From NCBI GenBank assembly GCA_965234725.1, contig CBDDUX010000063.1, positions 1 to 64,000 on the forward strand: DNA of 64,000 nucleotides, written 5' to 3'. Below the pieces are notes generated by a model. That model ran no database searches and was not told the origin of the DNA. It saw nothing but the letters and a program-made list of their open reading frames with translations. The DNA comes from Thermoplasmatota archaeon. Its GTDB lineage: Archaea > Thermoplasmatota > Penumbrarchaeia > Penumbrarchaeales > Penumbrarchaeaceae. Positions 3,305-47,566 of this stretch are shown piece after piece. The position numbers were made by a program, and so were the translations under genes. How positions within the stretch are numbered: the first letter of the stretch is position 1; the number at the start of each line of letters is the position of its first letter.

Positions 3305-5094
3305 CAAGAAAGGGAAGCATCAGGGAAAGGAGTGAGATCGAGATCCCCATGAAATGGGACCTGGAGGGCATGTACGGGAATGAGGCCGAATGGGAGAGAG
3401 ACCTGAGATGGATCGAGGAAAGAACAAAGACCATTGTGGATCTGAAAGGCACTCTGAACAAACCATCGACCATTGCCGACATGATAAGGAGAACCGATGA
3501 TATATCCAGAAAGCTGGAGAAGGTATATACATATTCACACCTCAGACACGATGAGGACCTCAAGAACAGGAGATACCAGGAACTCCATGACAGGGCTGTC
3601 AATATTATGGTTAAACTCGAGACCGAGACCTCTTTCATCATACCGGAGATCCTGGAGCTTCCTATTGAGAAGCTCTCAGCCCTTCCGGAGGAAGAGGTCC
3701 TCAAGTTCGCTGAAGTACCATTGAGGGAGATGATAAGGCGGAAGGAACATTTCCTTTCCAAAGAAGAGGAGAAGCTCCTTGCAATGGTAGATGATGCTTT
3801 GGAAACCCCATCCAAGGCCTTCAAGATGCTGAATGACGCTGACCTGACCTTCCCGGTCATCCAGGACGAGGAGGGGAATGAGGTGGAGCTTTCCCATGGG
3901 AGATATATCTCCTTCATGACCTCCGACGACAGGGGTGTGAGGGAAAGGGCATTCAAAGCATTATATTCCGTATACAAGGCCCACAGGAACACCTTCACTG
4001 TCCTTCTCGAGGGTGAGATAAAGAAAAGGATGTTCAGGTCCAGGGCAAGGAAATATCCGTCCCAGCTTGCCGCATCACTTGATAGCGACGAGGTAACGGT
4101 CGAGGTCTATGGATCCCTGATAGAAGCGGTAAAAAGACATCTTCCGTCCATGTATGACTACCTTGATATCAGAAAAAGGGTCCTTGGAATAGACCAGGTC
4201 CATTTCTACGATGTATATGCCCCTCTTGTGAAGGATTTCGACAAGAGGATCCCTTATGAAGAAGCATGGGAGATCGTTACGGAAGCATTGGAACCCCTGG
4301 GAAGTGATGTCACATCGATACTTGGAAAGGCTAGGAATTCCAGATGGATCGATGTATATGAGAACAGGGGCAAACGCTCCGGAGCATATTCATCAGGATG
4401 CTATGATTCCTACCCTTACATACTCCTGAATTACGATGAGAAGGTGAATGATGTTTTCACCCTTGCACACGAACTGGGCCATTCCATACATACATACCTT
4501 TCGAACAAGAACCAACCTCATCTCACAGCGGATTACAGGATCCTTGTGGCCGAGGTTGCATCGACAGTGAACGAGAACCTGCTTCTTCACCATCTTTCAA
4601 AGATATGGACCACGAGAGAGGAGAGAGCATATCTGGTCAATCATCATCTGGACAGTTTCAAGGGAACCGTTTTCAGACAGACCATGTTCGCAGAGTTCGA
4701 AAAGGAAGTATCCGAAATAATCGAGAGAGGGGTACCACTGACGGCAGACGGTCTTTCCGAGGTCTACGGAAGGCTGAACGATGAACATTTCGGGCCCGGG
4801 ACCTTCCATGATCAGGAGATTAACCTGGAATGGTCAAGGATCCCTCATTTCTACTACAATTTCTATGTTTACAAATATGCCACCGGATTCTCGGCAGCCA
4901 CAGCGATCTCGAACGGTCTGATCAATGGAAGCCTGGACCTTGATGATTACCTGGGCATGCTTAAAAAGGGTGGTTCGAGTCCTCCACTGGACCTCCTCCG
5001 GGGGGTCGGAGTAGACCTATCATCTCCGGAACCTATTGATAAAGGTCTGACACTGTTCGATTCTCTTGTAAACGAACTTGACGGGCTTCTATGA
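3301..5094 (+). CDS. pepF: Oligoendopeptidase F (M3B)
   Basis: GKRSGAYS, AHELGHSIH zinc motif, AEVAST, WSRIPHFYYNFYVYKYATG. Confidence 0.95.
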   Translation: MTRKGSIRERSEIEIPMKWDLEGMYGNEAEWERDLRWIEERTKTIVDLKGTLNKPSTIADMIRRTDDISRKLEKVYTYSHLRHDEDLKNRRYQELHDRAVNIMVKLETETSFIIPEILELPIEKLSALPEEEVLKFAEVPLREMIRRKEHFLSKEEEKLLAMVDDALETPSKAFKMLNDADLTFPVIQDEEGNEVELSHGRYISFMTSDDRGVRERAFKALYSVYKAHRNTFTVLLEGEIKKRMFRSRARKYPSQLAASLDSDEVTVEVYGSLIEAVKRHLPSMYDYLDIRKRVLGIDQVHFYDVYAPLVKDFDKRIPYEEAWEIVTEALEPLGSDVTSILGKARNSRWIDVYENRGKRSGAYSSGCYDSYPYILLNYDEKVNDVFTLAHELGHSIHTYLSNKNQPHLTADYRILVAEVASTVNENLLLHHLSKIWTTREERAYLVNHHLDSFKGTVFRQTMFAEFEKEVSEIIERGVPLTADGLSEVYGRLNDEHFGPGTFHDQEINLEWSRIPHFYYNFYVYKYATGFSAATAISNGLINGSLDLDDYLGMLKKGGSSPPLDLLRGVGVDLSSPEPIDKGLTLFDSLVNELDGLL

Positions 5095-5095
5095 A

Positions 5096-6391
5096 TCATT
5101 GTGGTTTGTAACGTCCCCATTTCTCAAGGGACCTTCCAAGCTCCTTTGAGCTCTTGGCCCTCTCCTCAAGCGTGATGCCATCCATCCAAGCTTCGACAGC
5201 ATGCATGGCCGCAACCGCACCTGAGCGTGTACCATCCGGATGACCGTGGATACCACCACTCACAAGAAGGACCAGGTCCGTTCCGTAGATATCCATAACA
5301 TCCGGAACAAGTCCCGGATGAAGTCCTCCCGAGGATACAGGGAAAGCGCTCTTGATACTGCCCCATTCTTGTTCCATCAGGACCCCTTTCTTCCCCTTCG
5401 TAACCTTCTCACGGAGTACGTCGGCAATGGATGTGACCTCATCCTTCGATCCCACAAGCTTTCCAACCGCAGTTCCTGAATGGATCTGGTTAACACCAAT
5501 TAGCCTCATCGTCTTGGCGATGAACTGCATGGATATGCCATGTAATGGATTCCTGTCAAAAGCCGCATGCATTGCCCTGTGAGCATGAATGCATAATCCC
5601 AGGTCCCTGGTATGTTCGATGATCGATTGAACACCCGCATGTCCGACTATCACCACATCCACCATGGCATATCTGAAACCGTTCTCATGAAGAAGTTCAG
5701 CCCTTCTCTTCATCTCCTCTACATCAGCAGTGATGTTCACAAAGGCATCCTTGATCTCTCCCGTCCTTTTCTCGGCCCTATCCCTATATTTTGAAAGCAG
5801 TTCCACCCTTTTATCAAACCTGTTGAATTTGAGGGAGGTCAGGTTCTCATCATCCTTGACGAAATCGAAACCACCCATCCAGGTTTCATACCCAACCTTC
5901 GCATGTTCCAGAGCAGAGAATCCTATCTTGGGTTTTGGAACGGCTCCGGTCAAAGGTCTCTTTTCTACCTTCATCATTCTCCTGATACCTTTTATGGATC
6001 TGTTGGGTCCTTTGAATGATGAAATATATTTCCTTGGAAAGGTGACATCTATCAACCTCAGATTCTCCACACCTTTCATTCCGAATATATTGCCAGCGAT
6101 CCCGGAAAGCAGTTGACAAATGTTCCCTTTCTCCCACAGGTCCAATGGATATGACACTTTAAGGAGGTCCCCATCCATATCATAAGCGGTGGCTTGAAGC
6201 CCCTTCATCCGATCTGGTAATTGAGAAAGGGTGGTCCACGTACCGGTGGAACTTTCGGAAGCGATCCGACCGGCACTCTCCTTTCTGGACATGCCTGAAG
6301 GGGGATCGAACCGGAAAAGGACCAAAAGCTCATCATTTCCCGGCGTGTAATTTAGGTCTACGAATTGATCATACCAATCTATCTTGGCCAT
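5096..6391 (-). CDS. rbcL: RuBisCO large subunit, form III-like
   Basis: ESSTGTW, PKPKIG, GGFDFVKDDENL (carbamylation motif), HAHRAMH, HSGTAVGKL, SSGGLHP, GGIHGHP; start at MAKIDW. Confidence 0.93.
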   Translation of the reverse strand: MAKIDWYDQFVDLNYTPGNDELLVLFRFDPPSGMSRKESAGRIASESSTGTWTTLSQLPDRMKGLQATAYDMDGDLLKVSYPLDLWEKGNICQLLSGIAGNIFGMKGVENLRLIDVTFPRKYISSFKGPNRSIKGIRRMMKVEKRPLTGAVPKPKIGFSALEHAKVGYETWMGGFDFVKDDENLTSLKFNRFDKRVELLSKYRDRAEKRTGEIKDAFVNITADVEEMKRRAELLHENGFRYAMVDVVIVGHAGVQSIIEHTRDLGLCIHAHRAMHAAFDRNPLHGISMQFIAKTMRLIGVNQIHSGTAVGKLVGSKDEVTSIADVLREKVTKGKKGVLMEQEWGSIKSAFPVSSGGLHPGLVPDVMDIYGTDLVLLVSGGIHGHPDGTRSGAVAAMHAVEAWMDGITLEERAKSSKELGRSLEKWGRYKPQ

Positions 6392-6425
6392 GGTCCGTTT
6401 TATCCTTCTAATGATATTAAGGTTT

Positions 6426-6812
6426 CTACACATAACCTGTCATGTCATAGCTCATAGGTGTTGAACCCTTGTAGCATTTCTCCTTCCACTGGGCGAAGTC
6501 CACTATTGTGTTCATAAGTACCGTTTTATTCACAGCTCCAACGATCTCTCCTATGGGTTTCTTGTGGCAGAAGAACTTGAATGTAGGTACCGAACGAACA
6601 CCATAGACCATTGAAACCTCCTGATAGAGTTGAGCATTTATCCTGCAGAATTCGGCCTTCGATCCGACATTTTTGGCAAGTTCCCTGTAGATTGGTTCCA
6701 TTGCCTGGCAGTTGGGGCATGAATTCGTATAGAACTCAACGATCACCATTTGATCGCATTTGTTGATCACCTCATCGAACTGTTCTTTGTCAAGTTCTCT
6801 CACATCATTCAT
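6426..6812 (-). CDS. Thioredoxin family protein
   Basis: VEFYTNSCPNC, YGVRSVPTF. Confidence 0.85.
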   Translation of the reverse strand: MNDVRELDKEQFDEVINKCDQMVIVEFYTNSCPNCQAMEPIYRELAKNVGSKAEFCRINAQLYQEVSMVYGVRSVPTFKFFCHKKPIGEIVGAVNKTVLMNTIVDFAQWKEKCYKGSTPMSYDMTGYV

Positions 6813-6897: not shown

Positions 6898-7169
6898 TTA
6901 TAATGGAACAGTATTGGAAGCCCTGACACATAGGAAAAACTAAAGATTGGACGGTCAGGATGGTAGAGACCCGGTTGATGGGACCGAAGCAGTCCCACTG
7001 ATGGAATAAGAGGGCCCTTTGGCAGATCAGGATCCTTTTTTTTGCGATACCGTCTCGATACTGACCAGACCGAACAGGGAAGGTATGAGGCAAATGGTTG
7101 GAAATATCAAAGAATGTTCGACATATTCCATACCTTCCGAACCCTGTGTGGAACCAAACAGGTGATAAT
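6898..7169 (+). promoter_or_regulatory. pnp promoter (TTATAA 6898-6903), long structured 5' leader and GGTGA RBS
   Basis: Helices GGTCAG 6953-58/CTGACC 7061-66; GAGAC/GTCTC; TGGGAC/GTCCCA; GGAAGGTATG 7078-87/CATACCTTCC 7129-38. Confidence 0.55.
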
Positions 7170-9431
7170 ATGAACAAGGTCGAAAGATTCGAGACCGAAT
7201 ATGCAGGTAAAAAAGTGATAGTCGAACATGGAAAGATGGCAAACCAGGCGAGTGCCTCTGTTACAGTCCAGATGGGAGAGACGATGGTCCTCGCAACTGC
7301 TACCATGTCAAAGAAAGCAAGGGAAGGAATGGATTTCTTCCCGCTTATGGTGGATTACGAGGAAAGGTATTCCGCTGTGGGAAAGATCAAAGGTCCAAGG
7401 TTCATGAAGAGGGAGGGAAGGCCCTCCAACGAAGCTGTCCTTACTGGAAGGATGATCGACAGAGGACTGAGGCCTCTTTTCCCCGAGGGTCTGAGGAACG
7501 ATGTGCAGATAATCATCATGCCACTCAGCCTGGACAATGAGAACAAACCCGATGTGGTAGGGATCATCGCGGCAACCATAGCCCTTGAGATATCCGACAT
7601 CCCATTTGACGGACCTATAACTGGTTGCAGGGTGGGGATGGTGAACGGAGAGTACATTCTGAATCCTTCGGCAGAAGAGATAGAATTCTCCGAACTGAAC
7701 CTGGTGGCAATGGGAGATTCAAAGAGGATCACAATGGTGGACTGCGATGCCAGAGAGCTTCCGGACACCATGGTACTTGATGCATTCGACATTGCCATGA
7801 AGACAATGGGACCGATGATCAAGTTCATGGAGACCCTCAGAAAGAAGATCGGCAAGGAGAAGAAGAAGAGGGAAGACCTCCACTGGAACGCTGAGATCTC
7901 CTCCGAGGACCAGAAGGTCCTGGATAAGATCAAGAAAGCAGCGATACCTGAACTTGAGAAGTATCTTTTCAACAAACCCGTTGGTTCAAAAGGAGAGCGT
8001 AAGATAGTGATCCATGAGCTTGAAGAAAAGCTGATCACCGATCTTTTGAAAAAATACAAAAGGAAGGACATGACCCCACAGGAGACGGAATCTTACGTCA
8101 AGCGCCTCATGTCGAAGTTCTTCTTCGAGTTCATAGAAGACCAGGTGACAGAAGCAATTCTGGAGAAGGACCAGAGGGTGGATGGAAGGAAACTGGACCA
8201 GATCAGACCGCTTTCAGCAGAAGTTGGAATAATCCCTAGAAGTCATGGGACCGGTCTTTTCAGCAGAGGAGAGACACAGGTTCTCTCTTTCTGCACACTG
8301 GGTTCTCCGGGAGACGATCTCCTGGTGGAGACCATGGAGAACGATAGCAAGAAGAAGTACTTCCATCACTACAATTTCCTCCCCTTTTCAGTGGGAGAGG
8401 TGAAACCCATCAGAGGAGCTGGAAGGAGAGAAATTGGACACGGTGCTCTTGCAGAAAAGGCACTGATACCTGTCCTACCCAGCCATTCGGAATTCCCATA
8501 CACGATCAGGGTCGTTTCCGAGGTGATGGGATCCAACGGTTCATCCTCAATGGGTTCTACTTGCGGTTCCACCCTTGCGTTGATGGATGCGGGAGTTCCC
8601 ATCAGGAGACCAGTTGCCGGAATGGCAATGGGACTTGCTTCCAACGGAAAGAAATGGAAGGTCCTGACGGACCTCCAGGACCTGGAGGACGGAAAGGGAG
8701 GAATGGATTTCAAGTTCACTTCCACAGAAGAAGGGATCACCGGCATTCAGATGGATACCAAAACACCTGGTCTCACCATTGACATCATCAAGGCCACTTT
8801 CCCACAGATGAGGAAGGCGATTTCAGAGGTCCTCGAAGTGATGAAAAAGGCTATCTCCGCACCAAGGGAGGAGCTCTCAGAGTATGCACCCAGGATCATC
8901 TCTCTTACAATCGATCCGGAAAAGATCGGAGATGTCATTGGACCTGGAGGCAAGATGATCAGGTCCATGTGCGAGGATTTCGAGGTCCAGATAGATGTGG
9001 AGAATGACGGTACCATAATGATCACATCTGATAGTTCCAGCAATGCGAAACTTGCGGAGAAGAAGATCAGGTCCATCGTCAGAACGCTTGAAGTGGGTGA
9101 TATCTTCGAGGATGCAGAGGTTGTAAAGATCATGCCATTCGGAGCTTTCGTCAAATTGACAGAGAAGGTCGATGGACTTCTTCATGTCTCGGAGATCGAA
9201 TGGGGTCATGTAGACAAAGTCACCGACAGGGTCCAGCCAGGAGACAGGATCAGGGTCAAGGTCATCGCTATCGACAGGGGTAAGGTCGAGGTCTCGATGA
9301 AAGCTCTCCTTCCCAGGCCAGAGGGTGCCAAGGATTCCGTCCGAAGGCCTCCAAGGAGAGGACCTCCAAGGGGAAAACCCCAATCCCACAGAGGGAACTC
9401 CAGCAGACCGCCAAGGTCAAACCGAAATTGA
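7170..9431 (+). CDS. pnp: Polyribonucleotide nucleotidyltransferase (bacterial-type PNPase)
   Basis: DFFPLMVDYEE, KREGRPS, DRGLRPLFP, HGTGLFSRGETQ, RREIGHGALAE, SNGSSSM, DMDFK-like GMDFK, KH (IGPGGKMIR), S1 (FGAFV...DGLLHVSEI). Confidence 0.97.
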   Translation: MNKVERFETEYAGKKVIVEHGKMANQASASVTVQMGETMVLATATMSKKAREGMDFFPLMVDYEERYSAVGKIKGPRFMKREGRPSNEAVLTGRMIDRGLRPLFPEGLRNDVQIIIMPLSLDNENKPDVVGIIAATIALEISDIPFDGPITGCRVGMVNGEYILNPSAEEIEFSELNLVAMGDSKRITMVDCDARELPDTMVLDAFDIAMKTMGPMIKFMETLRKKIGKEKKKREDLHWNAEISSEDQKVLDKIKKAAIPELEKYLFNKPVGSKGERKIVIHELEEKLITDLLKKYKRKDMTPQETESYVKRLMSKFFFEFIEDQVTEAILEKDQRVDGRKLDQIRPLSAEVGIIPRSHGTGLFSRGETQVLSFCTLGSPGDDLLVETMENDSKKKYFHHYNFLPFSVGEVKPIRGAGRREIGHGALAEKALIPVLPSHSEFPYTIRVVSEVMGSNGSSSMGSTCGSTLALMDAGVPIRRPVAGMAMGLASNGKKWKVLTDLQDLEDGKGGMDFKFTSTEEGITGIQMDTKTPGLTIDIIKATFPQMRKAISEVLEVMKKAISAPREELSEYAPRIISLTIDPEKIGDVIGPGGKMIRSMCEDFEVQIDVENDGTIMITSDSSSNAKLAEKKIRSIVRTLEVGDIFEDAEVVKIMPFGAFVKLTEKVDGLLHVSEIEWGHVDKVTDRVQPGDRIRVKVIAIDRGKVEVSMKALLPRPEGAKDSVRRPPRRGPPRGKPQSHRGNSSRPPRSNRN

Positions 9432-15576: not shown

Positions 15577-16371
15577 TTGTTGAACGGGGGTTCTGATTTG
15601 AATAAAGATGATGATGGAATATTTAAAAAACTGAGAGTCTTCAATCTCGTCATGGCGGTCCTGCATTTTCTTCAGGGTTTGTTAATGATCGTCATAAGCA
15701 ACGATTTCACAATAACCGTCACCAGAGGTTTCCTTGATTTCGACCCGATCACGGAGAGGCTCTATCCCGACACCGCTGATGTGATAGATATCAGGCTAGG
15801 GCCCTTGATAGCTTCTTTTCTGTTCCTCTCCTCATTGGCCCACCTGCTCATTGGGACCGGTCTTTTCAAGAGTTATGTCAAGGACCTAAAAAAGGGGATG
15901 AACAGATTCCGCTGGTACGAATACTCCCTCAGTGCTTCGTTGATGATCGTTGCTATCGCCATGCTCACAGGCATCTATGATGCAGGGACCCTGATCCTGA
16001 TCTTCTTCATGAACATGATGATGATACTTTTCGGACTCAGGATGGAGGTCCACAACCAGGGAAAAAAGAAGCTCGACTGGGACCCGTTCATTTACGGATG
16101 CATAGCAGGGATCGTTCCCTGGATCGCCATAGGGATCTATCTGATTGGTGCAGGGGGAGGTGATGGAGGACCTCCAGATTTCGTCTATTACATATACATC
16201 TCTCTTGCGGTGTTCTTCAATTGTTTCGCCATCAACATGGTCCTTCAATACAAGAAGGTCTGGAAATGGAGGAACTATCTGTTCGGAGAAACGATCTATA
16301 TCATTCTCAGCCTGGTAGCCAAATCCCTTCTTGCATGGCAGGTCTTTGCAGGAACCCTCAGGCCGGGATGA
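15577..16371 (+). CDS. heR: Heliorhodopsin
   Basis: 7 TM; LHFLQG, SLAHL, NRFRWYEYSLSASLM, YIILSLVAKSLLAWQVF (retinal Lys in SxxxK). Confidence 0.95.
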   Translation: MLNGGSDLNKDDDGIFKKLRVFNLVMAVLHFLQGLLMIVISNDFTITVTRGFLDFDPITERLYPDTADVIDIRLGPLIASFLFLSSLAHLLIGTGLFKSYVKDLKKGMNRFRWYEYSLSASLMIVAIAMLTGIYDAGTLILIFFMNMMMILFGLRMEVHNQGKKKLDWDPFIYGCIAGIVPWIAIGIYLIGAGGGDGGPPDFVYYIYISLAVFFNCFAINMVLQYKKVWKWRNYLFGETIYIILSLVAKSLLAWQVFAGTLRPG

Positions 16372-43662: not shown

Positions 43663-46104
43663 ATGATCGCATCCAACGAACGAAGAAGGGCCAAGTATAT
43701 CGGCAGGAAAGATGAGCTTGACCTTCTGAACCAAATCCTAGACGAGGTCCGATCCGGTAAAGGAAGGCTTGTCCTTGTTGCTGGTGAGGCTGGGATAGGA
43801 AAGACCAGACTCATCCAGGAAATGAAGGAACAACCTAATTTCTCCGGATTCAACTTCCTTATAGGTAGATGTCTTTATTTCAAGGATACGGACATATATC
43901 TTCCTTTCAAGGAGATGTTCACCCAGTATTCGAATATCATGAAGGACATGAATGCAGAATCCCCATTCTCCCCAAGGATGGGAGACCAGCGTTATGACAT
44001 GCTGACATCTCCTGATGGAGATTTCTTACCCATGTCACTAATCCCGGCTGAGATAGACCAGCCAGCACCAGAAGAGGATGAGATGCGGGTGGAGGGGTTG
44101 CTTGAGTTCGATAAACTATCCGATTTCATTTTCAAATTTTCAAAGAGAGGACCTCTTTGTCTTTTCATTGACGATCTTCATTGGGCCGATCCTCCATCAA
44201 TAAAATTCCTCCAGTATCTGGCCCAGAATATTCTGGACCAAACTATTCTAATAATCTGTACATACAGACCTGAAGACCTTTTCTGCGGTGAGGATGCACC
44301 TCATCCTCTTGCGGAACCCTTGAAGAGGCTATCAAGGGACAAACTGTATGTTCCGGTAGAGCTCAAACAGCTCTCAAGGGAAGAAACGGATAAACTACTG
44401 CGGAACATACTCGAGATAGAGAAGGTTCCTCCTACTTTCAGTGAACTGATATTCTCAAGGACCTCTGGTAACCCCTTCTTCGTAGAGGAGGTCCTGTATT
44501 CTCTGCTTGAACGGAATATAATCGATCCACTGACCCCTGATTGGCATAAGAACATAGATCCAGATACGATTTCTCTTCCAACGACGCTCAGGGATATCAT
44601 TCTCAGGAGGATGCATTGGCTCCAGGCCAATTCCATCGCCGTCATCAGATTATCCTCGGTCTCATCCGGGACAAGGATCACTTTTGAAGTGATCAAGGAT
44701 GCATTGAAGATGACGGACGAGGAAGTGCTGGAGGCTATTGAGGAGCTTGTTCAGGCAAAATTCCTCAAAGAGGTCAAGGAGGATGAAAGCTATGAGTTCG
44801 AGAACCCTGTTATTCAAGAGGTCATCTACTCGGAACTCAATCACAGCAGAAGGAAGTTCCTCCATACAAAGATGGCAAATGTCCTAGAGGCTAGATTCGC
44901 CCAGAATCCCTCTCACTGGGGAAATATCGGCATTCATTTCTACAAAGGAAAGGAATACGAAAAAGCCCTCCATTATCTGATCAATGCATCCACCTATTTC
45001 CAGAAGGTATCACCACACAAAGCCCTGGAATATCTGCATATGGTACTTTTCTGCATTGAGAAGCTCCCTCAATCGGATTCGGTCAAGGACCAGAACCTGA
45101 AGGTACTTCTGGAGATCTCCAACCTATGCCTTAAGATCTGGGATTGGGACCGTTCAAAGGAATTCGCTGAAAAAGCATTGAACCTTGCTACAGTGATCCG
45201 GAGACCAGTTGAAAGGTTCAAGGCCAAGGTCAATATAGGTGAGATCCTCAGGTTCAAGGGAGAATTCGATAAGGCCCTTGCCATATACCAGGATATCATC
45301 TCATCCACAGGTGATGAGGACTCGGAATCATTCGCAAAGGCTTACATGGGGATCGGCTATGTGAAATGGAAGAGGGGAGAGTTCCCCAGGGCTCTTGAGA
45401 TGTTCTCCAAATCCCTGCAATATGCGAAATTGGAAAACAATCTCAACACCATTGGTACCCTATACATAGACATTGGGAACGTCTTCAATCATAGAGGTGA
45501 CATGAAAAAAGCCATCGATTACTACACCAGGGGCATCAGACATCTGGAATCATACGGCAATATCATAGAAGCATCCAGAGGATACAGTAACATGGGTGGA
45601 GTTCACCTTCAACTTGGGGAGATGGAAGAGGCCGAGAAGAACCTGGATATGGCCATCAAGAAGGCAAAGGAGCAGGGTAGGCAGGAACCATGGTGGCCCA
45701 TGATACTCAAGATCAAGCTGAGAGCCCTGCAGAACAGATTCAAGGAAGCTGATGATGCATTCGAGAGGGTATCCGAGGACCTGAAGGGAAAGGACGATCA
45801 GGTCGGTCTTGCATCTTCTTTGATGTATGTCGGTCTATCAAAGACAAGGGAAGGTAAGTATGAAGAGGGAGAGACATTCCTTGTCAGGGCAATATCCATT
45901 TTTGAATCTCTCACAGTTCCGTTCGATCTTGCCCGAACCAAGGATCTATTAGGTGACCTCTATATGAAGAACTCGAAGTTCGATGAGGCAAAGACCTTTT
46001 ACAGTGAATCCTACCAGGCATTCAAGGAGATAGGGGCAAAAAGATATGCAGAAGAGGTCCGTGGAAAGCTCCTTGAATTAAGGGGTGGAGACGGATATAT
46101 TTAA
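43663..46104 (+). CDS. STAND-like AAA ATPase with TPR repeats
   Basis: IGRKDEL, GEAGIGKT, FIDDLHWAD, TSGNPFFVEE, C-terminal TPRs. Confidence 0.88.
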   Translation: MIASNERRRAKYIGRKDELDLLNQILDEVRSGKGRLVLVAGEAGIGKTRLIQEMKEQPNFSGFNFLIGRCLYFKDTDIYLPFKEMFTQYSNIMKDMNAESPFSPRMGDQRYDMLTSPDGDFLPMSLIPAEIDQPAPEEDEMRVEGLLEFDKLSDFIFKFSKRGPLCLFIDDLHWADPPSIKFLQYLAQNILDQTILIICTYRPEDLFCGEDAPHPLAEPLKRLSRDKLYVPVELKQLSREETDKLLRNILEIEKVPPTFSELIFSRTSGNPFFVEEVLYSLLERNIIDPLTPDWHKNIDPDTISLPTTLRDIILRRMHWLQANSIAVIRLSSVSSGTRITFEVIKDALKMTDEEVLEAIEELVQAKFLKEVKEDESYEFENPVIQEVIYSELNHSRRKFLHTKMANVLEARFAQNPSHWGNIGIHFYKGKEYEKALHYLINASTYFQKVSPHKALEYLHMVLFCIEKLPQSDSVKDQNLKVLLEISNLCLKIWDWDRSKEFAEKALNLATVIRRPVERFKAKVNIGEILRFKGEFDKALAIYQDIISSTGDEDSESFAKAYMGIGYVKWKRGEFPRALEMFSKSLQYAKLENNLNTIGTLYIDIGNVFNHRGDMKKAIDYYTRGIRHLESYGNIIEASRGYSNMGGVHLQLGEMEEAEKNLDMAIKKAKEQGRQEPWWPMILKIKLRALQNRFKEADDAFERVSEDLKGKDDQVGLASSLMYVGLSKTREGKYEEGETFLVRAISIFESLTVPFDLARTKDLLGDLYMKNSKFDEAKTFYSESYQAFKEIGAKRYAEEVRGKLLELRGGDGYI

Positions 46105-46120
46105 TAAATTCTAACAACAA

Positions 46121-46202
46121 GTTCAAATCCGGCTCCACCCAGAATACTATCATTAAATGAGATGTAGTTACATCGATAGTATAATAGGCGCCGGGAGCCG
46201 GA
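46121..46202. repeat. tRNA-Ser 3' fragments: inverted 16-mer (46121-46136) and direct 16-mer (46187-46202)
   Basis: GTTCAAATCCGGCTCC is the reverse complement of 46307-46322; GGCGCCGGGAGCCGGA equals 46300-46315. Confidence 0.8.
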
Positions 46203-46298
46203 CATTCGTAAAAAAGTAAACCCAAGTGATTCTGATCACTTTTTTACTTGCCAGTGATTAATTATTGATTACACGGCTCCCTTTGATTAGAAAATAAA

Positions 46299-46383
46299 TG
46301 GCGCCGGGAGCCGGATTTGAACCGACAAGGGTTGCCCCAGCGGTTTTCGAGACCGCCGCCGTACCAGGTTGAGCCATCCCGGC
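46299..46383 (-). tRNA. tRNA-Ser(CGA), CCA encoded
   Basis: GCCGGGA/TCCCGGC-G-CCA acceptor; GCGGT-CTCGAAA-ACCGC anticodon arm; long variable arm; GGTTCAAATCC T-loop. Confidence 0.95.
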
Positions 46384-46802
46384 GTTTAGATTTGCGAATG
46401 CACCAGAAACGGCTCAACCTGGTTGACCCGAAGGGTCATTATACCAGGTCGGAGTGTCGAAGGCACTCCCATCCGTGAACGGAATTCCCGAAGGGAATTG
46501 GGTTCTGAGCTATCCCGGCGTTTAGATTTGCGAATGCACCAGAAACGGCTCAACCTGGTTGACCCGAAGGGTCATTATACCAGGTCGGAGTGTCGAAGGC
46601 ACTCCCATCCGTGAACGGAATTCCCGAAGGGAATTGGGTTCTGAGCTATCCCGGCGTTTAGAATTGCGAATGCACCAGAAATAGCTCAACCTGGTTGACC
46701 CGTAGGGTCATTTTACCAGGTCGGAGTGTCGAAGACACTCCCATCCGTGAACGGAATTCCCGAAGGGAATTGGGTTCTGAGCCATCCCGGCGTTTAGAAT
46801 TG
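46371..46802. repeat. Tandem array of 3 x 136-bp hairpin-rich units plus a partial fourth, overlapping the tRNA 5' end
   Basis: GAGCYATCCCGGCGTTTAGA at 46371, 46507, 46643 and 46779 (period exactly 136). Confidence 0.95.
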
Positions 46803-46844
46803 AATGAAATTTGCTACGGCGGGTAAGGGGATGAAGTTAAAGGG

Positions 46845-46852
46845 TTTAAAAA
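46845..46852 (-). promoter_or_regulatory. Probable TATA box for the array + tRNA-Ser transcript
   Basis: Minus-strand TTTTTAAA about 55 nt upstream of the first GCCGGGATGGCTCA. Confidence 0.5.
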
Positions 46853-46989
46853 GGGTTTTGGTCAGGTTCGGCCCTACCTCCATTAATATTCTGGACCTCC
46901 CGAGGATAAAACAATACTATGCTCAATATATTTCTGTCCTTAGTAAACAATATTAACATGGATCAAGTTCCCATCACTGGGTGTGAACA

Positions 46990-47202
46990 ATGAAAGGTGG
47001 ATACGTCATCATGGGGATATTCCTCATGGCAACCTCATTTTAATTTCCACTTGGATATCTGATACTTGATCTACTATCATTGGGTATTCTTACCGTATTG
47101 ACACTAGGATTGGATTGGGTTTGCTGCTGTGGATTGAATTCACTTCTCTTCATTATCGGCATGGTTCTCTTTATCGTCGGTCTTGTAAAAGGTAAGGATT
47201 GA
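46990..47202 (+). pseudogene. Small hydrophobic membrane protein with in-frame TAA (47041-47043)
   Basis: MKGGYVIMGIFLMATSF*FPLGYLILDLLSLGILTVLTLGLDWVCCCGLNSLLFIIGMVLFIVGLVKGKD; GGTGTGA RBS. Confidence 0.5.
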
Positions 47203-47230
47203 GGATCAAAATACAGACGTTCTCTTCACT

Positions 47231-47566
47231 TTATGCATACATCATTTCATCGTCATGTTCATCCTTCATCAGGATCTCTTTCTTCTTCTTACGATCCCTA
47301 TCCTTGGATTTGTGCTTTACAGCCTTCCTCTGGGTCTCGTCACGACCAAGGAACGTGAAATCGAACCTGTTCATCCTGATGAACATCTTGTCAGGGAGCC
47401 TTTCTAACTTTATCCATCCCCTTGCCTCCATGCTTTTCAATGTCCTTGCCACATCCCTCGGAGACAAACCAGTCCTTTCGATCACTTCTCTGTCATCGAT
47501 AGGATATCTCTCAAGGATCACCCTCAGGATCTTTGCCTCTATGGACTTGGAATTCACCTGGACCAT
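47231..47566 (-). CDS. Small winged-helix protein
   Basis: TGLSPRDVARTLKSMEARGWI; start at MVQVNS after GGAGGGTGA RBS. Confidence 0.75.
   Translation of the reverse strand: MVQVNSKSIEAKILRVILERYPIDDREVIERTGLSPRDVARTLKSMEARGWIKLERLPDKMFIRMNRFDFTFLGRDETQRKAVKHKSKDRDRKKKKEILMKDEHDDEMMYA

Follow-up and report, generated by a model that had tools for sequence, protein, structure and literature searches.

A probable threefold tandem amplification of a 5′-leader module at tRNA-Ser(CGA) in a Thermoplasmatota clade, with a tentative role in tRNA maturation

Tandem repeats that take in part of a tRNA gene are known from the rtT region of E. coli tyrT, where the repeat unit includes terminal nucleotides of the tRNA and lies 3′ of the gene, carrying its 3′ end. 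The array described here, which precedes a tRNA-Ser(CGA) gene in a 64-kb stretch of DNA from a Thermoplasmatota archaeon (the whole stretch is called the window below), resembles tyrT in that its units include terminal nucleotides of the adjacent tRNA (nt 1-14 at the start of a 136-nt unit on the 5′ side, nt 69-84 at the end of a 113-nt unit on the 3′ side) and in that the repeats appear to share a transcription unit with the tRNA; the 113-nt 3′ repeat (46186-46298) even has the tyrT layout. It differs in that the main array precedes the tRNA, includes its 5′ end together with an antisense copy, is predicted to fold on itself and belongs to an archaeal host. A coding role, which we rejected, is also implausible here, with a period of 136 that is not divisible by 3 and a longest open stretch of 74 aa of 142. 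Archaeal pre-tRNA leaders are usually regarded as short and disposable, and at this locus a long structured leader seems to have been built from the tRNA's own 5′ end in both orientations.

An archaeal precedent for the use of a tRNA 5′ half is the integrase of pTN3 (SSV family). As far as the available portions of the two reports describe it, attB corresponds to nt 2-44 of tRNA-Leu (41 bp shared), the reconstituted tRNA ends up at a distance from its promoter, and the enzyme catalyses integration, excision and inversion (PMC5495485, PMC8371274), with a preference for tRNAs that read rare codons (PMC8371274). Going by those portions, the likenesses are an intact tRNA preceded by direct repeats of its 5′ part, inversions, a less-used codon in both cases and, here, a repeat of ~31 nt (spacer plus nt 1-14) that bounds each unit. 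The differences are that the 39 window ORFs include no integrase, that there is no ~41-bp att block at tRNA nt 2-44, that the repeat consists of nt 1-14 (to 22) plus leader, that the interior is 105 nt of structured non-coding sequence and that antisense copies sit inside every unit.

Two further systems bear on what such a structure might do or how it might arise. Designed leader hairpins gate RNase P cleavage; in the part of that report available to us, these riboswitches are synthetic, ligand-controlled and sequester the leader (PMC8925977). The proposed likeness is that structure in the 5′ leader would decide RNase P access; by contrast with the constructs as presented there, the array is natural, its arm would tie up nt 1-22 of the tRNA itself and the sense decoys would lie upstream. 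Inverted triplications are also known (PMC4689423), and template switching is reported to create and maintain hairpins, so that changes from one Watson-Crick pair to another are possible without selection (PMC8794818). The available parts of these two reports treat them as general mutational products, and the array shares with them the sense-antisense-sense order, the perfect palindromes and the seemingly compensatory changes (PMC4689423, PMC8794818), while differing in that it is bound to one tRNA gene across distant lineages and in that one version is conserved well above its flanks.

Layout of the array and its promoter

ARAGORN finds one tRNA gene in the window, and its Rfam score (47.7 bits) lies well over the gathering score of 29. 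The order on the minus strand is BRE/TATA-like motif, units A, B and C and tRNA-Ser(CGA) (46383-46299), with unit coordinates phased from the tRNA-like G1. The features are as follows.

46845..46861, minus strand: BRE/TATA-like motif CCAAAACCCTTTTTAAA, 70 nt upstream of unit A, a putative promoter in view of its recurrence in relatives
46792..46806, minus strand: end of the native leader, CATTCAATTCTAAAC, a 15-nt copy of the inter-unit spacer (from the sequence)
46656..46791, minus strand: unit A, 136 nt, 7 differences from B and C, antisense arm at 46673-46695 (model R1, 165.4 bits)
46520..46655, minus strand: unit B, 136 nt, antisense arm at 46537-46559 (model R1, 166.5 bits)
46384..46519, minus strand: unit C, 136 nt, identical to unit B, antisense arm at 46401-46423 complementary to tRNA nt 1-22 (model R1, 166.5 bits)
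46299..46383, minus strand: tRNA-Ser(CGA) gene with encoded CCA, followed by TTTATTTTC (ARAGORN; Rfam RF00005, 47.7 bits)
46186..46298, minus strand: 113-nt downstream repeat, made up of the trailer and a sense copy of the tRNA 3′ end (46187-46202, tRNA nt 69-84; repeat search)
46121..46136, minus strand: tRNA nt 62-77 in antisense, spanning the T loop, the T stem and the 3′ strand of the acceptor, with TTGTTGTT after it (repeat search)

Each unit opens with the first 14 nt of the tRNA, GCCGGGAT(G/A)GCTCA, and continues with ~55 nt that hold two hairpins. After the second hairpin comes ACCTGGTA, which is tRNA nt 15-22, then a third hairpin, the 23-nt antisense arm ACCAGGTTGAGCCGTTTCTGGTG and, as the end of the unit, a 17-nt spacer CATTCGCAAATCTAAAC; every unit is bounded by a direct repeat of ~31 nt consisting of the spacer and the first 14 tRNA-like nucleotides. 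Tandem Repeats Finder reports a single array (46370-46802, period 136, 3.2 copies, 97% matches, score 803), and a repeat search gives a 161-nt repeat in three copies of 100, 99 and 94% identity. The 36-nt unit core occurs three times in the 64-kb window, each time inside the array (expected 0), and GCTCAACCTGGT occurs four times, once in sense within the tRNA and three times in antisense, against 0.25 expected. The array of 136-bp units on the 5′ side of a tRNA-Ser and the anatomy of the unit stand as the preliminary description had them, and its partial fourth unit is the 15-nt spacer copy upstream of unit A. The hairpin module is real and unusual, since one copy has been kept in a distant relative (L045, below).

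Units B and C do not differ at any of 136 positions, and this is the observation that would suit an assembly artefact in which one or two units were wrongly expanded. Unit A differs from them at seven positions, which means that at least two units are real, and tandem copies also occur in independent assemblies (two 113-nt units in L013, two modules each in L102 and L098). We consider a false copy number very improbable. The best reading is that the amplification is recent; taken from the sequence, the identity of B and C would also imply an amplification that is very recent and possibly unstable, a point against the reading favoured below. Identical units together with 31-nt direct repeats at their boundaries look more like amplification in place than like repeated insertion. 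The suggestion that a mini-element had repeatedly inserted itself at the tRNA 5′ end is not supported in that form, as a pattern search and model R1 located no further copy of the unit in the window beyond the array, nor any in the 112 loci that were fetched.

Several other identities were examined and set aside. The units are not tRNAs or tRNA pseudogenes, as none matches RF00005 at E values up to 1. A CRISPR array is excluded by the repetition of whole 136-nt units without a variable part, and the 39 window ORFs contain no Cas, integrase or transposase domain, in agreement with the preliminary description. An intron with a bulge-helix-bulge was rejected because the 3′ boundary would fall inside a continuous helix, no 3-4-3 bulge is found by inspection and the tRNA gene is already intact; removal of a whole period would rebuild the tRNA. 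K-turn and C/D-box motifs were not seen by eye in the window or its relatives, and the sole snoRNA-like Rfam match (44278-44359, E 0.88) lies inside a TPR gene and is probably due to chance. No Rfam family was found for the unit, and neither there nor in the literature searched did we find a counterpart to the 5′-end sense/antisense design, which had been called unfamiliar at the outset.

Each of 10 among the 11 related loci has a single occurrence of the promoter-like motif; it sits 50-76 nt ahead of the first module, or ahead of the tRNA in loci that lack one. Among the seven module-bearing clade loci it lies upstream of the first module in six, and none was matched by regular expression in L080. 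Downstream of the motif's own T5, neither leader nor array contains a run of four or more T. Between the regulator gene and the promoter lie 380 nt for which the fetched loci contained no homologue.

Conservation and turnover among relatives

A single homologous unit, which scores 135 bits with model R1, separates promoter and tRNA in a distant Thermoplasmatota relative, L045, whose neighbouring proteins are 46% (Trm1), 61% (TPR) and 77% (RNR) identical to those of the window. Of the aligned unit columns, 101 of 121 (83.5%) are identical, and one stretch of 39 nt is the same in both; the flanks reach 44.2% and 49.1%, and shuffles 49.3%. The closing stem is retained in L045 with different letters (UACCGG/CUGGUA). 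Conservation so far above background in a distant relative would not be expected if the array were a neutral by-product of DNA rearrangement, in which fold-back or template-switch errors at a palindrome-rich tRNA gene made triplications at both of its ends that unequal crossing-over later expanded: with flanks at the shuffled baseline, a neutral relic should have decayed.

Other comparisons are kinder to the neutral explanation. A module with sense copy, hairpin and antisense copy stands between promoter and tRNA in seven of the 11 clade loci (window, L045, L064, L019, L102, L080 and, in degenerate form, L017), and it is missing or displaced in the other four. Three have none (L043, L109, L111). 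The closest relative, L013, with a TPR protein 83% identical, keeps hairpin 3 and the antisense arm upstream of the promoter motif, so that the module is dispensable and not always in the transcript. Copy numbers also vary, with 0, 1 or 3 modules upstream, and the 113-nt downstream unit has one extra copy in the window and two copies in L013. Module interiors are unlike between lineages, which speaks against a common functional core, and the type-2 modules look patched together from short tRNA pieces in both orientations, as where GACGGTC (nt 27-33) stands beside antisense nt 25-16. In favour of a leader module, on the other hand, the antisense arms track each genome's own tRNA, as with ACCAGATTGAGC in L013 (tRNA T16). 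In the window, identity between sense copies and tRNA is confined to nt 1-14; in relatives it extends over nt 1-22. The direct repeats, made of leader and tRNA 5′ end, measure 31 nt in the window, 42 nt in L064, L019 and L102, 29 nt in L080 and 35 nt in L090.

Similar modules recur at tRNA-Ser(CGA) genes: 14 of 108 loci carry a sense or antisense copy of at least 9 nt of tRNA nt 1-26 within 300 nt upstream, where 2.8 were expected, and similar 5′ modules are present in DPANN-like loci. After masking, a copy of an own fragment within 400 nt was found at 23 of 104 tRNA-Ser(CGA) genes and 15 of 272 other tRNAs, a weak comparison as the other set is mostly bacterial; before masking, this control was confounded by bacterial tRNA clusters. 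In L074, one of four tRNAs has a module, and it is the Ser-CGA. On the two-register reading taken up below, the design would recur at this tRNA in both Thermoplasmatota and DPANN-like archaea. Recurrence of similar modules at the same gene in two distant archaeal groups counts against the neutral explanation. The codon read by this tRNA suits it, with UCG making up 10.6% of serine codons (144 of 1358 in 35 ORFs). Such structures could be tolerated because RNase P would remove any leader and because the C34 tRNA is, we presume, probably partly redundant with the UGA isoacceptor.

Predicted folding and a possible gate on maturation

The seven differences between unit A and unit B (unit positions 9, 57, 79, 89, 109, 110 and 129) break no helix: three are unpaired, one turns a mismatch into a U-A pair and three belong to the set that pairs 8/9 with 109/110. 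The claim that unit differences are consistent with structure is right for two of three junctions (antisense A with sense B, antisense C with the tRNA) and fails at antisense B with sense C, which has an A x C mismatch. In the distal antisense arm, all four departures from the perfect complement give G.U or U.G pairs on the tRNA strand. Both the intact helices and this wobble-only degeneracy are awkward for neutral origin. Hairpin 3 can be compared in four distinct sequences, in which 47 of 48 cells pair and three of 12 pairs have changed on both sides; 0 of 500 shuffles reach its covariation score, a result from only four sequences. The inner hairpins are perfect Watson-Crick palindromes whose compensatory changes go from one Watson-Crick pair to another. 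Such palindromes, with no overall strand bias, are what template switching would leave, and if the locus is a footprint of that kind it cautions against taking compensatory changes in palindromes as proof of RNA function. Weighing both sides, we regard neutral origin as somewhat unlikely.

Two observations were considered as RNA signatures and dropped. In register, the supposed UUCG tetraloops are 3-nt UUC loops (UAC in unit A) on perfect palindromes, and folding energy shows no consistent preference for a strand: of 15 modules, 6 fold better as the sense strand and 9 as the opposite one.

For one array period, offset by 2 nt from the G1 phasing of the units, the computed folding energy is -50.5 kcal/mol (z -3.3, matched by 0 of 200 shuffles), and for the 552-nt precursor it is -234.1 kcal/mol (z -8.9, 0 of 100). 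The predicted unit fold contains the acceptor-like closing stem GCCGGGA/UUCUGGU followed by G that had been proposed, with GCUCA/UGAGC continuing the stem and CAUUC after the G; it offers, in silico, an acceptor-like stem of 7 bp from G1, coaxial to ~12 bp, with an unpaired 3′ tail, as would suit a mimic of an RNase P substrate. Predicted pairings of the antisense arm are mutually exclusive (1:2 and 2:3) in the manner of an attenuator, with computed energies of -14.9 to -18.3 kcal/mol for the unit's own sense copy, -14.9 to -20.2 for the next sense copy and -36.8 for tRNA nt 1-22. This last pairing, by which the final antisense tract meets the real tRNA 5′ end with one bulge, was rightly anticipated in the preliminary description. 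The minimum free energy structure of unit C plus tRNA (-105.6 kcal/mol) uses it, as compared with -89.3 for a closed unit next to a cloverleaf, and in these models the last antisense arm out-competes the cloverleaf.

These predictions suggest a mechanism. The module would have originated when the first ~22 nt of the tRNA gene were duplicated in sense-antisense-sense order, and unequal recombination or slippage between the ~31-nt direct repeats that bound the units could later have expanded it. Transcription from the conserved BRE/TATA promoter would make the array a single long leader of the pre-tRNA. Pairing of each antisense arm with its own unit's sense copy would give a closed, acceptor-like stem and leave the tRNA free; in the alternative register, each arm would take the next sense copy downstream and the last arm tRNA nt 1-22, which would block the acceptor and D stems and hence recognition by RNase P. 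With two alternative partners for each antisense arm, the sense copies would act as decoys, and the net effect would be that maturation of a minor-codon tRNA is throttled or gated. RNase P would finally remove the leader and, as each unit starts with the tRNA's -1/+1 context, might release the units as well.

Threefold tandem amplification of a tRNA-Ser(CGA) 5′-leader module in one Thermoplasmatota clade, combined with such gating of maturation, is the reading that we favour, tentatively and at slightly less than an even chance for the whole. Its parts differ in strength. An amplified, lineage-conserved leader module is very probable. Judging from the modelled pairings, an effect of the module on maturation as RNA is possible, if somewhat doubtful, and it is rather unlikely that such an effect would be a selected regulatory function. 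The idea of co-transcribed tRNA-mimic RNAs that may gate maturation is partly supported, in that it fits the anatomy, the promoter motif, the conservation in L045 and the predicted fold; the units are not themselves tRNAs by ARAGORN or Rfam. If the arm does compete with the cloverleaf, the locus would offer a natural example of tRNA maturation under the control of a leader, a kind of control that is so far known mainly from designed constructs.

The 3′ side of the tRNA and traces of recombination

The repeats downstream of the tRNA mirror those upstream, with sense copy, antisense copy and tRNA on the 5′ side and tRNA, antisense copy and sense copy on the 3′ side. On both sides an inverted copy stands between two direct ones, as in an inverted triplication, which agrees with the neutral explanation. 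Of nine clade loci that have downstream sequence, eight carry sense copies of the tRNA 3′ end from the T loop on and seven an antisense copy of at least 11 nt; the two 113-nt copies of L013 are 96.5% alike. On a further extension of the gating idea, the leader would be a cis switch with two registers, a zipper in which either all modules are closed and the tRNA is free or every arm moves on by one register, with tRNA nt 1-22 locked by the last of them; copy number would serve as a tuning knob for RNase P maturation, with a mirror module on the 3′ side. We think this improbable.

Between conserved neighbours, L045, L019 and L064 have the tRNA cassette in the orientation opposite to that seen in the window, L013, L080, L043, L111, L017 and L102. 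Inversions of this kind, together with the precedent of the pTN3 integrase, as far as the available text of those reports goes (PMC5495485, PMC8371274), and the rare-codon preference (PMC8371274), raise the alternative that the repeats are footprints of a recombinase or miniature integrative element whose attachment site is the 5′ part of tRNA-Ser(CGA). The direct repeats would then be att duplications, the antisense copies and cassette flips inversion products and the 105-nt interior an element remnant. Direct repeats of 29-42 nt do approach att size, the 3′-end sense copies downstream in eight of nine clade loci are in keeping with this, and the sense copy in the L045 unit has an A7 that matches the window's tRNA and not the G7 of its own. 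Set against it, the window ORFs encode no integrase or transposase domain, and only 393-538 nt separate the conserved neighbours in L043, L045, L080 and L013, so that no element fits. No distant att copy was found within 5 kb on either side in any clade locus, and blastn of array plus tRNA against phage and plasmid collections gave no match. The interiors are also consistently small and structured, unlike random deletion remnants, and the repeat in the window covers only tRNA nt 1-14. The recombinase explanation is in our estimate quite improbable. Should a mutational or recombinase footprint nonetheless be the right answer, the locus would preserve, within a short stretch, the traces of sense-antisense-sense duplication, of tandem amplification and of a tRNA cassette that was inverted repeatedly.

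The neighbourhood suggests one more explanation, in which the palindromes act as DNA, for example as operators for the neighbouring winged-helix regulator that form a roadblock between promoter and tRNA. A winged-helix gene (HTH_24, MarR_2, TrmB) adjoins the cassette in every relative with enough sequence, and hairpin 1 is a perfect palindrome of 17 bp, AATTCCC TTC GGGAATT, that is the same in the window and L045. Against this, the other module types have different palindromes, the orientation of the regulator gene relative to the cassette flips among relatives and the tRNA-derived arms are left unexplained, and we hold an array of protein-binding sites to be highly improbable. The mirrored 3′ arrangement, the modules in relatives, the cassette inversions and the archaeal precedent of an integrase with a tRNA 5′ half as attB all come in addition to what the preliminary description contained.

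The tandem array upstream of tRNA-Ser(CGA)

A single tRNA, tRNA-Ser(CGA), was called by ARAGORN in the window, and the sole array reported by Tandem Repeats Finder (46370-46802, period 136, 3.2 copies, 97% matches, score 803) overlaps its 5′ end. A repeat search of the window returned three 161-nt copies with identities of 100, 99 and 94%. The three 136-bp units of the preliminary description are borne out, and its partial fourth is a 15-nt copy of the spacer that lies upstream of the first unit, so that a ~31-nt direct repeat (spacer plus tRNA nt 1-14) bounds every unit. Phased from the tRNA-like G1, the features are:

46791-46656, minus strand: unit A
46655-46520, minus strand: unit B
46519-46384, minus strand: unit C
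46299-46383, minus strand: tRNA-Ser(CGA) (ARAGORN; Rfam 47.7 bits, gathering score 29)

Each unit opens with tRNA nt 1-14 followed by ~55 nt holding two hairpins, continues with ACCTGGTA (tRNA nt 15-22) and a third hairpin, and ends with a 23-nt antisense arm, ACCAGGTTGAGCCGTTTCTGGTG, and a 17-nt spacer. Units B and C show no differences over 136 nt and unit A is variant at seven positions (9, 57, 79, 89, 109, 110 and 129). The unit core occurs three times in the window with 0 expected, and a D-loop 12-mer four times with 0.25 expected. The unit could not be accommodated as a tRNA, since no Rfam family was matched at E up to 1 and ARAGORN called one tRNA in the window, nor as a CRISPR, since 39 ORFs of the window encode no Cas domain; the earlier remark that neither integrase nor cas genes lie nearby agrees with the lack of integrase, transposase or Cas domains among these ORFs. 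The intergenic region is 1127 nt long in the window versus 393-538 nt in relatives, to which the 408-nt array and a ~380-nt stretch (46850-47230) that separates the winged-helix gene from the promoter of the tRNA add about equally. The loci of the relatives gave no homologue of the latter stretch, whose plus strand has short reading frames of hydrophobic character, broken by an internal stop, at ~46990-47204.

Conservation and variation among related loci

Relatives were sampled by a genome scan anchored on the tRNA D loop and anticodon arm, which gave 112 loci and from which the window's own genome was absent. Judged from blastn and neighboring proteins, ten loci join the window's clade (L013, L017, L019, L043, L045, L064, L080, L102, L109 and L111), all of them from metagenome-assembled genomes titled Thermoplasmatota, Thermoplasmata or Thermoplasmatales. 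Gene order is kept (ribonucleotide reductase, AAA-TPR protein, tRNA, winged-helix gene, Trm1, TFS). L013 is closest to the window (identity 83% for the TPR protein, 88% for ribonucleotide reductase, 64% for Trm1), and L045 and L080 are distant (TPR 61%, Trm1 46-49%). A BRE/TATA-like motif (CC[GA]AAA followed by T/A-rich sequence) occurs exactly once per locus in 10 of the 11 loci, preceding the first module (a set of sense copy, hairpins and antisense arm), or the tRNA where the module is absent, by 50-76 nt, which supports the proposed position of the array between promoter and tRNA. No T runs of at least 4 occur in the leader and array 3′ of the motif's own T5. Across the clade, the BRE region (TTGACCGAAA) is similar to the T loop and stem of the tRNA read in antisense. 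L045 has 11 nt of exact antisense identity (ATTTGAACCGA), located ~195 nt 5′ of its tRNA and overlapping the TPR stop codon and BRE; the similarity could be due to chance.

One unit lies in L045 at the same place as the array, scoring 135 bits with R1, our model of the unit; beyond the array and L045, an R1 search of the window and the 112 loci gave only a weak match in L013 (21.7 bits, E 0.018). Compared from the sense copy to the end of the antisense arm, unit A agrees with its L045 counterpart in 101 of 121 aligned columns (83.5%), and one stretch of 39 nt is identical, while flank identity is at the shuffled baseline (49.3%), with 44.2% for the promoter-to-unit linker and 49.1% for the 100 nt 3′ of the tRNA. 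The closing stem of the L045 unit is kept with different letters, and its sense copy has A7 as in the window's tRNA, L045's own tRNA having G7. Four different sequences (window A and C, L045 and L013) keep the hairpin 3 pairing, with 47 of 48 cells paired and 11-46% pairing in slid controls; both sides changed in 3 of 12 pairs, and the covariation score of these four sequences was reached by none of 500 shuffles. Sense-antisense-sense duplication coupled with unequal crossing-over, a neutral origin, explains the architecture on both sides of the tRNA but leaves the 83.5% conservation of the unit in L045 unexplained.

Other clade modules argue against function in that their interiors vary between lineages. 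In L064, L019 and L102 the direct repeat measures 42 nt, 20 from the leader and the rest tRNA nt 1-22, and the ~88 nt that it encloses contain two other hairpins as well as tRNA nt 25-16 in antisense; L102 has an additional, degenerate copy, and the sole module of L017 is degenerate. In L080, a 29-nt repeat bounds a 133-nt interior, which has short blocks in common with each of the two other module types. In the 20 nt that precede its tRNA, L080 also has a second promoter-like motif, CCGAAAAATGCTAA, which resembles the promoter of L013 and is only ~6 nt from the tRNA; this suggests that the duplicated segment once held the promoter. It also weighs against function that modules are absent from 3 of the 11 loci (L043, L109 and L111) and displaced in the closest relative, L013, where only hairpin 3 and the antisense arm are found, upstream of the promoter motif; that arm agrees with L013's own tRNA (T16).

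Predicted alternative pairing and possible regulation

One array period, offset by 2 nt from the G1 phasing, has a predicted fold of -50.5 kcal/mol (z -3.3), and the 552-nt precursor one of -234.1 kcal/mol (z -8.9). The pairing proposed earlier between the last antisense arm and the tRNA 5′ end is upheld: unit C arm with tRNA nt 1-22 is predicted at -36.8 kcal/mol by nearest-neighbor energies, which leave tertiary contacts and modifications out of account. When unit C and the tRNA are folded together, the minimum-energy structure (-105.6 kcal/mol) contains this pairing, and in it the unit C sense copy is free to pair with the tRNA 3′ acceptor strand; the alternative fold, a closed unit plus cloverleaf, is at -89.3 kcal/mol. 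Unit differences had also been described as consistent with structure, which holds for arm A (..GCTAT..), fitting the next sense copy (ATAGC), and arm C (..GCCGT..), fitting the tRNA (ATGGC), and fails for arm B, which meets an A x C mismatch. The distal antisense arm departs from perfect complementarity by four substitutions, and each of them, read on the tRNA strand, yields a G.U or U.G pair, a modest hint of RNA-level constraint. Against function, folding energy favors the tRNA strand in only 6 of 15 modules, with no overall bias, and the palindromes of the inner hairpins are perfect and their changes run from WC to WC, a pattern that template switching is reported to be able to produce (PMC8794818). 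The identity of B and C likewise points to a very recent and possibly unstable duplication.

The anatomy, the conservation, the place 3′ of a promoter-like motif that is itself conserved, and the alternative pairings at the level of prediction are established, and we propose that the array would be transcribed as one long pre-tRNA leader. Given these pairings, the chain sense A-antisense A-sense B-antisense B-sense C-antisense C-tRNA could zip in two registers, with upstream sense copies serving as decoys for the antisense arms and the tRNA escaping RNase P recognition in the shifted register. According to one report, designed leader hairpins gate RNase P (PMC8925977). Throttling of tRNA-Ser(CGA) by such a leader is conceivable because UCG, at 144 of the 1358 Ser codons counted over 35 ORFs, is a minor codon. 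The finding belongs with tRNA-linked repeats and structured pre-tRNA leaders, as a variant. The nearest known layout is the E. coli tyrT-linked repeat, which shares a tandem unit containing a tRNA end; those repeats lie 3′ of the tRNA without antisense copies, whereas the window array is 5′ with an antisense copy in each unit. No description of sense/antisense 5′-end modules in archaeal pre-tRNA leaders was found in the literature covered by our non-exhaustive search.

The 3′ side, inversion and other lineages

The 3′ side mirrors the 5′ design:

46121-46298, minus strand: 3′ mirror design, also downstream of the tRNA in L013, L045, L064, L019, L080, L111 and L043

The tRNA is followed by TTTATTTTC in the window, and most clade loci have, in order, an antisense copy, hairpins and the tRNA 3′ end repeated in sense orientation. 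Of the nine loci having downstream sequence, seven have tRNA nt 62-78 copied in antisense over at least 11 nt, with TTGTTGTT after it, and eight have the sense copy. A tandem unit of 113 nt, closing with the 3′ end of the tRNA, has one extra copy in the window and two in L013 (96.5% alike). The cassette, from promoter to 3′ modules (window 46104-47231, compared with L045, L019, L064 and L109), is co-directional with the winged-helix gene in the window, L013, L080, L043, L111, L017 and L102 and convergent in L045, L019 and L064. L017/L102 and L019/L064 have identical tRNAs and the same conserved neighbors but opposite orientations, which indicates that the cassette was inverted more than once. 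A recombinase origin of the repeats and inversions has precedent in pTN3-like integrases, reported to use tRNA nt 2-44 as attB, to reconstitute the tRNA apart from its promoter and to catalyze inversions (PMC5495485, PMC8371274). However, the unit failed as an integrative element, with no integrase among 39 ORFs of the window, no element, and no distant att copy within 5 kb on either side in the clade loci; the intergenic space is only 393-538 nt in relatives, and phage and plasmid collections gave no match.

Copies of tRNA nt 1-26, sense or antisense and at least 9 nt long, were found within 300 nt upstream in 14 of the 108 tRNA-Ser(CGA) loci with enough upstream sequence, versus 2.8 from shuffles. 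The non-clade loci among them are L027, probably a chance match, and L047, L072, L074, L090 and L098. The latter five appear DPANN-like, their tRNAs resembling those in Woesearchaeota and Nanobdellota records, under the record titles Nanobdellota (L090), Methanosarcinales (L047, L098), Undinarchaeales (L072) and Binatia bacterium (L074). Each has tRNA nt 1-9 to 1-16 upstream, then a hairpin, and an antisense stretch closes the module in L047, L074 and L098. The two divergent modules of L098 have sense copies both identical to the tRNA at 13 of 13 positions, and L090 has an 86-nt tandem unit 3′ of the tRNA. The three other tRNAs of L074 have no module and have TATA boxes ~26 nt upstream. In another scanned locus, L007 (~5001-5100), the T-loop region of tRNA-Ser(CGA) is broken by ~13 extra nt (GGTTCAAAT...ATCCTG), which looks like a non-canonical intron or an insertion.

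Elsewhere in the window, a 777-aa ORF (7098-9431, plus strand) has two RNase PH domains, KH and S1, a polynucleotide-phosphorylase-like layout in otherwise archaeal-looking surroundings (TBP, TFS, Trm1). A heliorhodopsin (15577-16371, plus strand; Pfam E 2e-102) and a RuBisCO large-subunit homologue (5096-6433, minus strand) are also encoded.
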